A stretch of DNA of 64,000 bases, from positions 7,260 through 71,259 of IMG/VR virus record IMGVR_UViG_3300027740_000183; one strand, written 5' to 3'. How positions within the stretch are numbered: the stretch's first letter is position 1; the number at the start of each line of letters is the position of its first letter. The notes below the pieces were generated by a model. The model was not told where the DNA came from and made no database searches. It was given only the letters and a program-made list of their open reading frames with translations. Source of the stretch: a virus. The position numbers and the translations under genes were made by a program. Positions 17,705 to 63,726 of this stretch are shown piece by piece.

Positions 17705-18049
17705 ATGTTACAAACTGTTCTTACACTATTGTCTATCTATGGAGTTTGTTTCGCTATTAAAGATACTAAAGGTTTATCAGTACCGCGTGATTGGATTAGA
17801 AAGCATTCGGTTATACTAGATAGCATGTTAGATTGTGCTTTTTGCACAGGATTTTGGAGCGGTATTATCGTTCATCTTATAACTTATAAAATTTTTGATA
17901 TAAAGGATTTATTTTTGTATGGATTTGGGGCCGCAGCGTTATGTTATATTGTAGATACTATAATGATTAAGTTAGGAAATAGCGAGGAAAGTAATAGCGA
18001 GGAAAGTAATAGCGAGGAAAGTAATAGCGAGGAAAGTAATAATGAGTGA
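17705..18049 (+). CDS. Membrane protein, DUF1360-like
   Basis: TM helices with LDCAFCTGFW; C-terminal (SEESN)4; stop codon lies in adjacent MITE. Confidence 0.55.
   Translation: MLQTVLTLLSIYGVCFAIKDTKGLSVPRDWIRKHSVILDSMLDCAFCTGFWSGIIVHLITYKIFDIKDLFLYGFGAAALCYIVDTIMIKLGNSEESNSEESNSEESNSEESNNE
17981..18040 (+). repeat. Tandem repeat 4 x 15 bp (AGCGAGGAAAGTAAT)
   Basis: Four exact copies. Confidence 0.95.
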
Positions 18050-18094
18050 AGCCTCCCCGAGGCTAAAGACCTCGGGGTTTTCTCGCTACGGAAA
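18046..18094 (+). mobile_element. 49-bp IS200/IS605-type solo end (family B)
   Basis: GTGAAGCCTCCCCGAGGCTAAAGACCTCGGGGTTTTCTCGCTACGGAAA; second copy at 63678-63726. Confidence 0.75.
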
Positions 18095-18159
18095 GATAAA
18101 TTTATTAACAAGTTAATTAGAGAATATGTACGAGTAGAGGAATAATAAGGAGAGCAACA

Positions 18160-18663
18160 ATGAATAAAAATCTTAGAGTTAGATTAATTAAAGTAGCTAA
18201 TCAAATTAAAGTAGCTGATCAAGCTTATAATGCTAAGGAATTAGGAAGAGCTAATACCCATATACAGCAACTTCAAAAAGCGCCTTTGGAGGCACGAAAA
18301 GAGTCTGCTAAAGAGTGGTATGACGCTATTTCTACAGATCCTCAAATTGTAGCGGATCGTATTGGTTGGTTGTTTAGTGGTAATTATGGGTACGGAGAAA
18401 TGTTGTTAGCACAACGAATACTAGCACAAGGCAAAGGGGCTAATAAAGTAGCAGCGCTTTCTCTGCTAATAGCAGCATTAGAGTGGATGACCCCCTCCCG
18501 TGAAGCTATTGCGATGTGGAAAAAACTTAGTGCTGCTCAACAAAGAGCGCTAAAGAGTGTTATTGAAAAAGAAATTATAGATTACACGAAACGAAAAGAA
18601 GGGGAAGACAAAGAAAATACGCCAGAGAAAGTAGAAGAAAGAAAAAAGTCTTTGATGTCATAG
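18160..18663 (+). CDS. Hypothetical protein with RLIKVA motif
   Basis: RBS AAGGAG; MNKNLRVRLIKVAN. Confidence 0.6.
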   Translation: MNKNLRVRLIKVANQIKVADQAYNAKELGRANTHIQQLQKAPLEARKESAKEWYDAISTDPQIVADRIGWLFSGNYGYGEMLLAQRILAQGKGANKVAALSLLIAALEWMTPSREAIAMWKKLSAAQQRALKSVIEKEIIDYTKRKEGEDKENTPEKVEERKKSLMS

Positions 18664-19382
18664 TGCCTTTAGATAAAGAAATAGATCTGTTATTACCAAA
18701 AAAATCCTTAAACAAGGATTTTTGGGGCATTGGTTTATCTATAGAGCCTTCTGTAAGAGATACTCTTATTGAAATTGCAAATGATTTTGTCACAAAGGCA
18801 AAAATTGGGAAAAAGATTGTAAAAGACTATTTAGTAACAGGCAGTATTGCAAACTATAACTGGTCCAAGTATTCTGATGTAGATCTTCACATTGTTGTAG
18901 ATTTAAGGTTCTCTACAAATAATGAAGTGCTAAAAAATTATCTTGATGCTAAAAAATCGTTATGGAATGACAAACATGTTATTACTATGTTTGGACACGA
19001 GGTGGAAATTTATGTACAAGATATAGAAGAACCTCATTACTCTACAGGTACTTATTCCTTACTTAAAGATCGTTGGATCACTAGACCAAAGCGTATATCT
19101 GTTGATAATCTTGATAAAGACAGTATTGTTAAAAAAGTACGAGTAGTAAATCATTATATTTCTCATTTAGAGAATTTATATGAGAAAAGGGAGTACAAGA
19201 AGGTATATGAGTTAGCGGAGATGTTGAAAGAAAAGATAAGAAAGATGAGAAATGCGGGGTTAGCAAAAGAGGGTGAGTTCTCTGCTGAGAACTTAGTTTT
19301 CAAAGTATTAAGAAGAACTAAAAAGTTGGAAAAACTATCAGAATTGTACATAAAAGCATATGATAAAAATTTAGAGATTTAA
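18663..19382 (+). CDS. Pol-beta superfamily nucleotidyltransferase
   Basis: VTGSIANYNWSKYSDVDLH (hG[S]..DhD) plus third acid in EVEIYVQD. Confidence 0.8.
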   Translation: MPLDKEIDLLLPKKSLNKDFWGIGLSIEPSVRDTLIEIANDFVTKAKIGKKIVKDYLVTGSIANYNWSKYSDVDLHIVVDLRFSTNNEVLKNYLDAKKSLWNDKHVITMFGHEVEIYVQDIEEPHYSTGTYSLLKDRWITRPKRISVDNLDKDSIVKKVRVVNHYISHLENLYEKREYKKVYELAEMLKEKIRKMRNAGLAKEGEFSAENLVFKVLRRTKKLEKLSELYIKAYDKNLEI

Positions 19383-19383
19383 T

Positions 19384-19743
19384 ATGAAAACAAAGAAGAC
19401 GGAGTTTTCGCTTCTTATTTATTGTCTCACCGAGGTTATTAACTACTACCAAATCGCACTTTCTTACCAAGATATAACAAAATTATTGTATTATTTTCAG
19501 AAAGAGTGTAATTTTCCTTTAGGTTTATGTTTTATCACTTATGACTGTTGTTTGGATCTAGACTATTACTTAGCACGAGCTTTTATATTGAAGTTATTAG
19601 GTAAGTTTAGAAGTTTTAATGGGAAAACTTTTGATGACATGTATGACATTGGTATTAAAAAATTATCACACAGTTTTAGCGATGAGGTAACTTTAGATTA
19701 TAAAGCTATCTCATCTTTATTAGGAGGTATTAAAAAATTATGA
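19384..19743 (+). CDS. Hypothetical protein
   Basis: 119-aa ORF coupled to neighbours. Confidence 0.45.
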   Translation: MKTKKTEFSLLIYCLTEVINYYQIALSYQDITKLLYYFQKECNFPLGLCFITYDCCLDLDYYLARAFILKLLGKFRSFNGKTFDDMYDIGIKKLSHSFSDEVTLDYKAISSLLGGIKKL

Positions 19744-62341: not shown

Positions 62342-62359
62342 ACTTGTGTGGTCCTCTAT

Positions 62360-62650
62360 TTAGGGATATTTAATCAAATTTTTTAAATTATCAAGTGTGT
62401 ACTGCGCAGCTAAAACTGCTGTTTTATTTCTATAATGATTCTTTTTGTCATAGTCTTCCGCCAGCACATCCGTTATTACAAGAGAGATATAGACTTGATT
62501 CATCTGTGCACACATTTCTTCTAGCACTTCCACACAATGTTCTCTTGTAATAGGGTATTTTAAATCAATAATTTTTCCTGTGCTTAGCTCGTATTTTTGT
62601 GTAGGGCAAGGACGAACTTCTTTGCTTTTATTTTGTGTTTGGTTATCCAT
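62360..62650 (-). CDS. Hypothetical protein
   Basis: RBS AGGA. Confidence 0.5.
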   Translation of the reverse strand: MDNQTQNKSKEVRPCPTQKYELSTGKIIDLKYPITREHCVEVLEEMCAQMNQVYISLVITDVLAEDYDKKNHYRNKTAVLAAQYTLDNLKNLIKYP

Positions 62651-62697
62651 GCTGTGTTCCTAATATTTCAGTTTTTCTAATTTAGAAGCTATTTTTT

Positions 62698-62979
62698 TCA
62701 GTATCCCACACACCTAAATATATCTTTACAACTATTTTGTGTAGATAAGCACTTTAGTACTGGCTTGGTAGTTATTGTACTCGTAAAGAAATTGCACACG
62801 TCTTCACAACTAAACCCACAAGTATCTAGTTGAGAATGACATTGGTGCCTATGATAATTATTGCAAGCATCAAAGCAGGTATATTCTTTGGTGTTTTGTT
62901 CTTCAATATCATATTGTGTAGTAGACACACAACTCGATAAAGAAAGTAATGAAAAAACAAGTAGTAATTTTATTTCCAT
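62698..62979 (-). CDS. Small Cys-rich lipoprotein
   Basis: Lipobox LSSC; eight further cysteines. Confidence 0.6.
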   Translation of the reverse strand: MEIKLLLVFSLLSLSSCVSTTQYDIEEQNTKEYTCFDACNNYHRHQCHSQLDTCGFSCEDVCNFFTSTITTKPVLKCLSTQNSCKDIFRCVGY

Positions 62980-63533
62980 TATTGATAGTCTAGCAAAACT
63001 CTAATCCAACTTTGGATTTCTTGCTTTGTGTCCTCTGCCATGTTATTACCGCGTTCTTTCAACACGTTATCTACCGCTTTAGTGAACTGCAGCGTATCTC
63101 TTCTGTCAATATAATCTCCAACTAAAAGAGTAAGGTCTCCAATCATTTTATTTAATTCGTCTACACTTTCAAATCCGGAAGAGTATGTAGTTACATCATT
63201 TCGTATCTCATCATAAGTAGACGCAATTTTACCATAATTATCTATATTAGTTTTTAAATCACTTATCTCGTTTTTTACCCAAGCAGTCAGTAAATCTGCT
63301 CTATCAGACCATTCATTTAATTTAGAGTTGATGATAGCAGATAAAAAATTAGCTAAACGTGCTCGTACCGATATAGGAGTTAGGATTATCCACGCTTCAA
63401 AATCTGCACTTATCTCAACAAGGATACCAGAACCTGAATTGTAATAATAAGGTCTTGACCCGTTAGGTCTAGCTAAGGAGTCTACCTTTTTTGCCTCTTT
63501 GGGGGTTAAGTCTTTTATGCCGGTTATTGCCAT
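62979..63533 (-). CDS. Hypothetical protein
   Basis: 184-aa ORF. Confidence 0.55.
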   Translation of the reverse strand: MAITGIKDLTPKEAKKVDSLARPNGSRPYYYNSGSGILVEISADFEAWIILTPISVRARLANFLSAIINSKLNEWSDRADLLTAWVKNEISDLKTNIDNYGKIASTYDEIRNDVTTYSSGFESVDELNKMIGDLTLLVGDYIDRRDTLQFTKAVDNVLKERGNNMAEDTKQEIQSWIRVLLDYQ

Positions 63534-63677
63534 ATTATTTTTTACAACATTTTTTATATAATTTAAAAATTGTAGGAAGCATCAACAAAGTGAAAAAAGA
63601 CAGTACTAGCGCTATTTCCATACTATTTTAACTCCATTTCGCCCTCAATACATTGTGGACATCTTAGGTATTTACCG

Positions 63678-63726
63678 TTTCCGTAGCGAGAAAACCCCGA
63701 GATCTTTAGTCTCGGGGAGGCTTCAC
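63678..63726 (-). mobile_element. 49-bp IS200/IS605-type solo end (family B)
   Basis: GTGAAGCCTCCCCGAGACTAAAGATCTCGGGGTTTTCTCGCTACGGAAA; differs from 18046 copy by one compensatory stem pair. Confidence 0.8.

Follow-up and report, generated by a model that had tools for sequence, protein, structure and literature searches.

Reduced IscB/omega-RNA transposon copies and their one-hairpin units in a large soil phage contig

How do DNA units of 46–51 bp, each built around a single hairpin, come to lie at four places in the genome of a soil phage? The units, whose size does not count a 4-nt target, stand in a 64,000-nt stretch, here called the window, which comprises bases 7260–71259 of a single 137,151-bp virus contig, IMG/VR record IMGVR_UViG_3300027740_000183. 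A genome coordinate equals the window coordinate plus 7259, and coordinates below are those of the window unless marked as genome. Judged by their sequences, these features are IscB/omega-RNA (ISC, 'HEARO') transposons of the IS200/IS605 superfamily in a large soil phage. Six ISC copies were found in the window, of which a first-pass annotation of this DNA had named all but the one at 22001–22252, and four more elsewhere on the contig. The window copies are four one-hairpin units (A, starting at 18046; C, at 50186; D, at 54312; and F, at 63676) and two internally deleted copies (B, 22001–22252, and E, 57902–58601). The copies outside the window are called G, H, J/I and K.

The 700-bp element E, on the minus strand, holds the 23-mer CCCACCCCTAAAGAGGTGGGCTT at both of its ends (57918–57940 and 58571–58593), i.e., two identical hairpins in direct orientation, as the first-pass annotation had noted, which lie 630 bp apart. 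The 23-mer recurs without change on the minus strand at 50202–50224, in unit C, and with one mismatch on the plus strand at 22009, in B; 100 shuffles gave no match. The tail TTCTCGCTACGG occurs exactly at 18080, 22237, 54317, 57907 and 63681, five times where 0.08 matches were expected. Units C and D read GTCA(A/G)TTA, one hairpin, and CTTTCTC.CTAC.GAGATC, which is the omega-RNA-side terminus, a single hairpin and the distal tail. The earlier description of these two minimal elements was upheld, as was that of a second family, A on the plus strand and F on the minus strand, with the same layout and a compensatory stem change: the family 2 stems, CCCCGAGG/CCTCGGGG versus CCCCGAGA/TCTCGGGG, stand one compensatory pair apart. 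Unit C (50186–50232, minus strand) consists of GTCAATTA, the hairpin at 50205–50224 and CTTTCTCTCTACAGAGATC; read on the plus strand, it is TTAC (50182–50185), 19 nt ending in AAAG, the hairpin and TAATTGAC. Unit D (54312–54357, minus strand) reads GTCAGTTA, hairpin, CTTTCTCGCTACGGAGATC, then GTTAA; its variant hairpin CCCACTCTGATGGGGTGGG is at 54331–54349, and its terminus and tail are as in C. Unit A (18046–18095, plus strand) is GTGAAGCCT, the hairpin at 18055–18077 and the tail TTTTCTCGCTACGGAAAG, followed by the target ATAA at 18096–18099. Unit F (63676–63726, minus strand) is GTGAAGCCT, the hairpin at 63695–63717 and TTTTCTCGCTACGGAAACG, with its target, TTAC on the plus strand, at 63672–63675.

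In the Rfam alignment, the outer helix of HEARO has GTCAATTA as its 5' strand, and the hairpin corresponds to the consensus's first internal hairpin, with the conserved CUAAAG loop. The ends of the family are the tail TCTCGCTACGGAGATC plus a hairpin with a CTAAAG loop. Because six fully paired versions of three variable stem pairs occur among the 22 hairpin instances collected, the stem is conserved as a structure. The tail holds a second small hairpin, TCTC.CTAC.GAGA, and unit C folds as the main hairpin plus the small tail hairpin, with z = -2.6 as RNA and -3.4 as DNA.

That these are IscB elements with IS200/IS605-type hairpin ends, as had been proposed, was borne out by HEARO matches, an IscB with RRXRR and HNH domains, and a left end resembling that of IS608. 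HEARO (Rfam RF02033) matched the contig four times, with 113, 97, 87 and 73 bits; the first three scores exceed the gathering score, which is 83, and the 87-bit match, in E, is full length. Copy H (genome 99438–100912, minus strand) has the 97-bit HEARO and the sole intact iscB, an open reading frame (ORF) at genome 99438–100628. Its 396-aa product matches RRXRR (E=6e-58) and HNH (E=1e-12) in Pfam, aligns with solved IscB structures at E=8e-38, and conserves the catalytic RuvC/HNH motifs (GID, E, HH and H..D). IscB relatives of 40–54% identity are present in at least 123 viral contigs, the closest of which (e.g., L046 and L053) show the layout found here, with an omega-RNA end of the form GTCAAT.A-hairpin and a distal end of the form ATTC.T-hairpin-tail.

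One name had to be changed. The first-pass annotation called the omega-RNA side the left end, and the omega-RNA end of iscB elements is the canonical right end (RE) of IS200/IS605 (Meers et al. 2023 preprint, 10.1101/2023.03.14.532601); the tail end is therefore the left end (LE), read on the opposite strand. In IS608 of Helicobacter pylori, TTAC stands 19 nt 5' of the foot of the left-end hairpin, and the guide AAAG directly adjoins that foot; the right cleavage site is 10 nt 3' of the hairpin at the opposite end (He et al. 2011, PMC3201880). Here the iscB-distal end, on the opposite strand, reads TTAC or TTAT, 18–19 nt ending in AAAG or AAAA, and the hairpin. C, F and the distal ends of E and J/I have TTAC, 19 nt and the hairpin, and in family 1 (C, E and J/I) the 19 nt end in AAAG, so that C, E and J/I have the IS608 left-end geometry and guide. 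A and K have TTAT plus 18 nt and the guide AAAA, as the IS608 pairing rule predicts. The putative right cleavage site, TGAC or TCAC, ends 8–9 nt past the hairpin foot, a few nt 3' of the hairpin as in IS608, whose site differs in being TCAA at 10 nt. The cargo differs as well: here it is iscB on the opposite strand, in IS608 it is tnpA and tnpB. E and J/I have one hairpin per end in direct orientation and no terminal inverted repeats. ISC and matching TnpB elements have 5'-GTCA termini and the targets ATGA, ATCA or ATAA preceded by any base N (Kapitonov et al. 2016, PMC4810608), and the RTAA targets found here are compatible with these types.

Each unit consists of the LE linker, one hairpin and the RE terminus, which is what deletion between two directly repeated hairpins leaves. 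The hairpin-to-hairpin collapse product computed from E is 47 nt, the length of C, and is identical to C at 44 of 47 positions. The terminus and hairpin of F are identical to the omega-RNA end of the longer relic G (genome 74730–74765). In K, the distal hairpin has non-complementary arms of two types, as expected from a crossover in the loop. A and F agree at 48 of 51 positions and stand at two targets, ATAA and GTAA; C and D agree at 39 of 47. The idea that a stub is a TnpA circle junction was rejected, as the junction would read hairpin, 8 nt, 19 nt, hairpin, i.e., it would have two hairpins. The sequences point with good probability to deletion between hairpins as the best account of the form of the units.

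The whole explanation, that ISC copies inserted at RTAA and that the units arose by hairpin-hairpin deletion, we consider likely. An ISC copy would enter as single-stranded DNA by the action in trans of a Y1 (TnpA-type) transposase, which the geometry of the ends implicates and which is presumably the host's. It would insert next to RTAA (TTAY on the transposase's active strand), often a stop codon in this AT-rich genome (36% G+C in the contig). Replication slippage or single-strand annealing between the 20–23-bp end hairpins, in the manner of solo long terminal repeat (LTR) formation, would delete the nuclease gene and guide RNA and leave a one-hairpin unit. With one hairpin only, the units would now most likely be immobile relics, tolerated or perhaps mildly useful at gene ends, where they are co-oriented and, as hairpins with a U-tract, terminator-like. 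Deletion may precede insertion or may have occurred at the present sites, and the data do not decide between the two. We put collapse at the present sites at nearly an even balance and arrival as ready-made stubs, discussed below, as possible and on the doubtful side; the remainder goes to undecided or mixed origins. Of the solo-LTR-like route first proposed, then, the predicted form of the units is found, as the match of E's collapse product to C illustrates; purging of the elements within the phage is not demonstrable.

Several points weigh against this explanation. Insertion and collapse are both deduced from the logic of the sequences. A and F have no two-ended family 2 parent in the contig. 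A Y1 transposase (PF01797) had no match in the 137-kb contig, about 35% of the genome, so that of the two genes that the first-pass annotation suggested looking for, intact iscB was found in H and tnpA is absent from the contig. F, with the guide AAAA at TTAC, and D, with TAAC, each deviate from guide/target pairing at one position. Neither empty nor filled alleles were seen in the searches for close relatives or in Logan contigs. IscB and HEARO had no match anywhere in the 94 kb of IMG/VR phage contig G001, which has similar units, as described below. Finally, the terminator-like role that the units may have is read from a consensus scan. As to the transposase, about 1.5% of iscB genes are linked to tnpA (Meers et al. 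2023 preprint, 10.1101/2023.03.14.532601), and the lack of tnpA here is normal for iscB elements.

The scenario named at the outset as refuting collapse is that the units arrived as ready-made one-hairpin miniature inverted-repeat transposable elements (MITEs) of IS200/IS605 type, the stub having arisen once per subfamily elsewhere (the host chromosome, for instance) before transposing into the phage, with the single hairpin used with a TTAY site on one side and TGAC/TCAC on the other. Both predicted cleavage sites are indeed in each unit, and by the IS608 rule one 4-nt guide (AAAG/AAAA) could pair with TTAC/TTAT and with TGAC/TCAC; the near identity of A and F at different targets also fits movement of a stub. 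The scenario gains some support because hybrid one-hairpin units (GTCAAT.A-hairpin-tail-RTAA or ATGA) turned up by pattern scans in at least 10 other, unrelated environmental contigs, and because of G001. The hybrid units were in seven metagenome stretches (six distinct sites, one of them in two samples) and four IMG/VR contigs, and the records that have them hold further copies. They often lie between genes or in tRNA clusters; those in L119 and L120 adjoin tRNA genes, and a T4-like replication-gene region has two, with a tail nearly as here and no proteins in common. In G001, two hybrid units that are nearly identical stand at different target sites, alongside two relics of the distal end; a search for relatives of G001 returned G001 only. 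The pattern in G001 could be explained by fast repeated collapse or by stub movement, and is simpler if the stub itself moves. One-hairpin substrates are not known to transpose. The known biochemistry argues against stub movement, without excluding it: in the IS608 transpososome, a TnpA dimer binds a single hairpin of each end (PMC3201880), and REP (repetitive extragenic palindromic) singlets, the closest analogue, are described as remnants of two-hairpin REPINs (PMC3337134). Further, the stubs here are no homogeneous amplified family, given the differences between C and D, and C is closest to the ends of E. That a one-hairpin unit is a working end-pair, with both cleavage sites and one guide, movable by a host TnpA, seems to us improbable. 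If true, the unit would be the smallest IS200/IS605 derivative, and co-oriented units such as those at 50186 and 54312, 4.1 kb apart, could mobilise the intervening phage genes as a composite element.

A different possibility is that the stubs, as exapted relics, are kept under selection as intrinsic terminators or RNA-stabilising hairpins. In a consensus scan of the gene strand, A was the top terminator-like site of its region, F was second-best in its region, and C was listed, on the minus strand; the three rank first to third in their regions, and D was not among the sites listed. The terminator role suggested in the first-pass annotation may extend to A, C and F. Each of the four stubs stands at the 3' end of a gene and has the orientation of its flanking genes, they fold as RNA with -14.6 to -20.1 kcal/mol, and a compensatory stem change separates A and F. 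Against selection, the family 1 tail CTTTCTC makes a poor U-tract; co-orientation is also reported for iscB elements in general (Meers et al., 10.1101/2023.03.14.532601), and could arise equally from strand-specific single-strand insertion or from survivorship; and the compensatory change may predate collapse. We judge retention of the stubs by selection to be unlikely. Lastly, the resemblance might be coincidental, the units being ordinary phage terminator hairpins unrelated to IscB; they are, after all, short, GC-rich hairpins followed by T-rich sequence. The long elements share with them the 8–9-nt terminus, the hairpin, the 19-nt tail and the adjacent TTAY; the hairpins of C and E are identical at 20 of 20 positions, F and G are identical in terminus plus hairpin, and no chance matches are expected. 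Coincidence is already contradicted by these sequence identities, and we give it practically no weight.

The longer copies differ in what they have kept. B (22001–22252, plus strand) has the terminus GTCATCTA and hairpin 22009–22028, the 3' portion of HEARO, codons 1–51 of iscB (22083–22235; PLMP/RRXRR domain) and the tail ATTCTCGCTACGGAGTG; its distal hairpin is lost. It stands directly after the portal gene, with its target ATAA at 22253–22256. Compared with H by blastn, B keeps master positions 8–47 and 235–432 at 82–86% identity; its IscB part is 86% identical to that of H over 51 aa by tblastn and matches Pfam RRXRR at E=2e-12. E, on the minus strand, has a complete HEARO/omega-RNA (58340–58601) and the C-terminal ~135 codons of iscB (57957–58361) within the ORF 57930–58496; its tail ends at 57902, with the TTAC target on the plus strand at 57898–57901. 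E keeps positions 9–271 and 1088–1496 of H at 72–78% nucleotide identity (blastn) and is 58% identical in amino acids to IscB residues 265–399 (tblastn). The ORF 57930–58496 of E is uninterrupted and encodes 188 aa, a translation of the HEARO region fused to the last ~135 IscB residues; it has no Pfam match, is without the PLMP, first RuvC and HNH parts, and is probably non-functional. G (genome 74344–74765, minus strand), a family 2 relic, has the omega-RNA end, the 73-bit HEARO match and a 30-codon PLMP remnant with a stop, and its distal end is absent. The sequence of H ceases to be element-like right after the iscB stop codon; therefore its distal hairpin and tail have been lost. J/I (genome 101659–102094, minus strand; 436 bp) has the complete 113-bit HEARO fused to the final ~40 nt of iscB plus the distal end, and keeps positions 8–306 and 1459–1496 of H (blastn). 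K (genome 115136–115478, plus strand) has a third hairpin type at the omega-RNA end, and the arms of its distal hairpin are unpaired. IscB fragments were detected in the relics B, E and G.

The decay forms are then one copy with intact iscB and omega-RNA and a lost distal end, two to three copies resembling palindrome-associated transposable elements (PATEs) with omega-RNA and both ends, two relics lacking one end, and four one-hairpin units. The longer copies are 72–88% identical to H in nucleotides, with internal deletions that differ from copy to copy, and E is at 58% in amino acids; therefore they belong to several subfamilies, and the forms make up a series and not a single lineage decaying in this genome. 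The decay series of the first-pass annotation holds in that forms from intact to stub are present, and fails in the sense of a single lineage that decays where it stands. For each omega-RNA copy, the presumptive guide (the 16 nt preceding it) matched its own site only when searched against the contig (the query for G was offset 4 nt from GTGA), so there is no self-target in the contig.

Some observations concern the neighbors of these copies. Directly after the PLMP remnant of G, at genome 74220–74340 on the minus strand, is a short open frame (...KIKSVIVKRENDKWFACFSIEKE) that by eye resembles the N-terminal segment of TnpB and may be a second, different IS605-type relic. Between J/I and H, at genome 100913–101170 on the minus strand, are a tRNA-Arg(TCT), a duplicated ORF 3' end and then a truncated tRNA 5' half. 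The tRNA D-arm-like sequence GCGTAGTTCAGTGGATTAGA, also between J/I and H, adjoins the omega-RNA that belongs to the intact IscB, for which it would thus serve as the guide.

Other hairpins and tails were also seen. In L116, L129/L135 and L130 versus L131, all outside this contig, hairpins are exactly inverted, with the loop TTTA, not TAAA, with mismatched stem positions swapped and the flanks unmoved, which suggests flipping by template switching or cruciform processing. Inside coding sequence 40 nt beyond unit C, at 50127–50147, is a GC-rich hairpin, CCCACCCCCCATTGGGGTGG, with arms like the family 1 hairpin and without the flanks; chance could account for it, as could an older relic. Two tail matches with a single mismatch, at genome 4825 and 127094, lack a hairpin and were taken as chance.

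The insertion sites were studied by removing each element in silico, from the GTCA/GTGA start to the base before RTAA. In four cases (A, B, J/I and K), removal gives the upstream gene back a stop codon that lies within the RTAA target. With B or J/I removed, the upstream ORF ends ...K-stop with the TAA of the target (...TTK-stop for B), and the start of the next gene (TAATG) or its ribosome-binding site follows; for B, the TAATG overlaps the next start. With B or J/I present, the upstream protein runs into the TAA of the hairpin loop and gains five residues in each case. For A and K, the element's own GTGA provides a stop in frame with the target ATAA, so the upstream protein is unchanged; in A, the upstream ORF (17705–18049) stops at the GTGA, and the reconstructed empty site gives the same Glu-stop by way of ATAA. 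That ORF ends in a SEESN repeat encoded by a tandem 15-nt repeat, AGCGAGGAAAGTAAT, at 17980–18045 on the plus strand, directly before A. D lies in the last codons of an ankyrin-repeat ORF (54300–55067; Pfam Ank), which reads through the whole unit, with the predicted last six residues swapped for 18 others. RTAA (TTAY) adjoins seven of the eight copies with a distal tail, D adjoining GTTAA, and none of the eight has a target-site duplication. Nine of the 10 copies are co-oriented with neighboring genes. In the nearest portal relative found (66% identity), the homologous LLTGY.D end is followed by 11 nt, no element, and the next gene. The empty-site comparison proposed earlier thus yielded a distant relative with no element after its portal gene, and no close one. 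Because this 66%-identical relative is no true empty allele, the removal results are not proof; they fit target-specific insertion at RTAA and survival of insertions at gene ends.

Close phage relatives were sought in several ways. None was found by megablast against INPHARED phages, in IMG/VR by way of the portal and glycosyltransferase proteins, or in JGI metagenomes by way of a 270-aa neighbor protein. The portal relatives found by protein search, at 66% identity or less, are too distant for solo and full-length forms to be compared at one site. Logan contigs of one soil sample over 45000–64000 break at the repeated hairpins, and their joints, whose sides measure at most 33 nt, connect different copies; the joints are therefore assembly-graph links, not alleles. 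No joint matching collapse of E was among them, which is uninformative either way. An exact scan of 185,579 species genomes with a hairpin foot plus tail pattern, GGGNTTTCTCGCTACGGA, gave 28 matches; none was preceded by a hairpin, so all are chance, and neither the element nor a host was found with this pattern among those genomes. The exact GGGNTTTCTCGCTACGGA pattern had no match in IMG/VR.

CheckV estimates the contig to be 35% of its genome. It encodes a portal protein of PHROG 16240 whose relatives, by protein search, reside on contigs of 350–400 kb; the source is therefore a large phage, probably of jumbo type. The only sequencing sample found to contain it is a soil metagenome (a DNA sample). 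Several portal homologues are 1,100–1,270 aa long with intein/LAGLIDADG domains (PF14528, PF14890); mobile elements thus repeatedly target the portals found in this phage group, and in this phage the portal instead has an IscB relic at its stop codon. A free-standing HNH homing-endonuclease gene (50302–50931, minus strand; PHROG 374, E=2.5e-44) lies 65 nt upstream of unit C, where different kinds of mobile element are clustered. Two intact large TnpB-like genes lie outside the window on the minus strand, at genome 97006–98478 and 112228–113688 (window-equivalent 89747–91219 and 104969–106429). They encode 491 and 487 aa with OrfB_IS605 and Cas12f1-like_TNB domains and are 88% identical to each other over ~1.5 kb; one is just downstream of the intact iscB, and CCCAC-type hairpins are absent from the ends of both.

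Within the ISC/IscB group, the long copies are nothing out of the ordinary. As in ISC elements (Kapitonov et al. 2016, PMC4810608; Meers et al. preprint; Rfam RF02033), HEARO stands at the transposon end and is followed by iscB, the terminus is 5'-GTCA, subterminal hairpins are at both ends, insertion appears to be in sense orientation upstream of a 4-nt target of ATGA/ATAA type without duplication, and there is no tnpA in cis. What differs is the setting, a phage replicon with about 10 copies of several subfamilies in 137 kb, of which one has an intact nuclease and has lost its distal end. PATEs are protein-less, keep both IS200/IS605 ends and often a guide RNA (Dyall-Smith et al. 2011, PMC3119063; Meers et al.). 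J/I, at 436 bp, agrees with this definition and the 700-bp E nearly does, having kept a nuclease-less ORF remnant; in contrast to PATEs, which keep both palindromic ends, the 46–51-bp units have one hairpin between pieces of both ends. The units resemble REP sequences and REPINs in being short extragenic GC-rich hairpins related to substrates of Y1 transposases (Bertels and Rainey 2011, PMC3337134). REPINs are inverted doublets of bacterial chromosomes tied to a domesticated RAYT gene, whereas the units here are single and not inverted pairs, their parents are direct-repeat-ended IscB elements, and the contig has no Y1 or RAYT gene. Solo LTRs offer an analogy only: deletion between direct terminal repeats leaves one repeat and both outer flanks. 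The repeats here are 20–23-bp hairpins, whereas LTRs run to hundreds of bp, and slippage or single-strand annealing is a likelier mechanism than regular homologous crossing-over. No description of the hybrid one-hairpin form was found in the searchable literature, and the unit is possibly an undescribed minimal form of a known family.

Cas9 descends from IscB elements, whose life and death in genomes are under active study. A single molecule here displays an intact nuclease, mini-elements with guide RNA only, one-ended relics, and stubs of 46–51 bp. Deletion from hairpin to hairpin would give a testable route by which such an element sheds its nuclease and guide RNA and keeps a REP-like hairpin. 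Insertion at RTAA stop codons, together with the element's own GTGA stop in families 2 and 3, suggests how a transposon with a 4-nt target colonises a phage genome that has little free space. Nothing here alters what is known of how IS200/IS605 elements work. Mobility of the stubs, if proven, would make them the smallest derivative known in this transposon family; a terminator function would mean that transposon ends have been recruited for phage gene expression.

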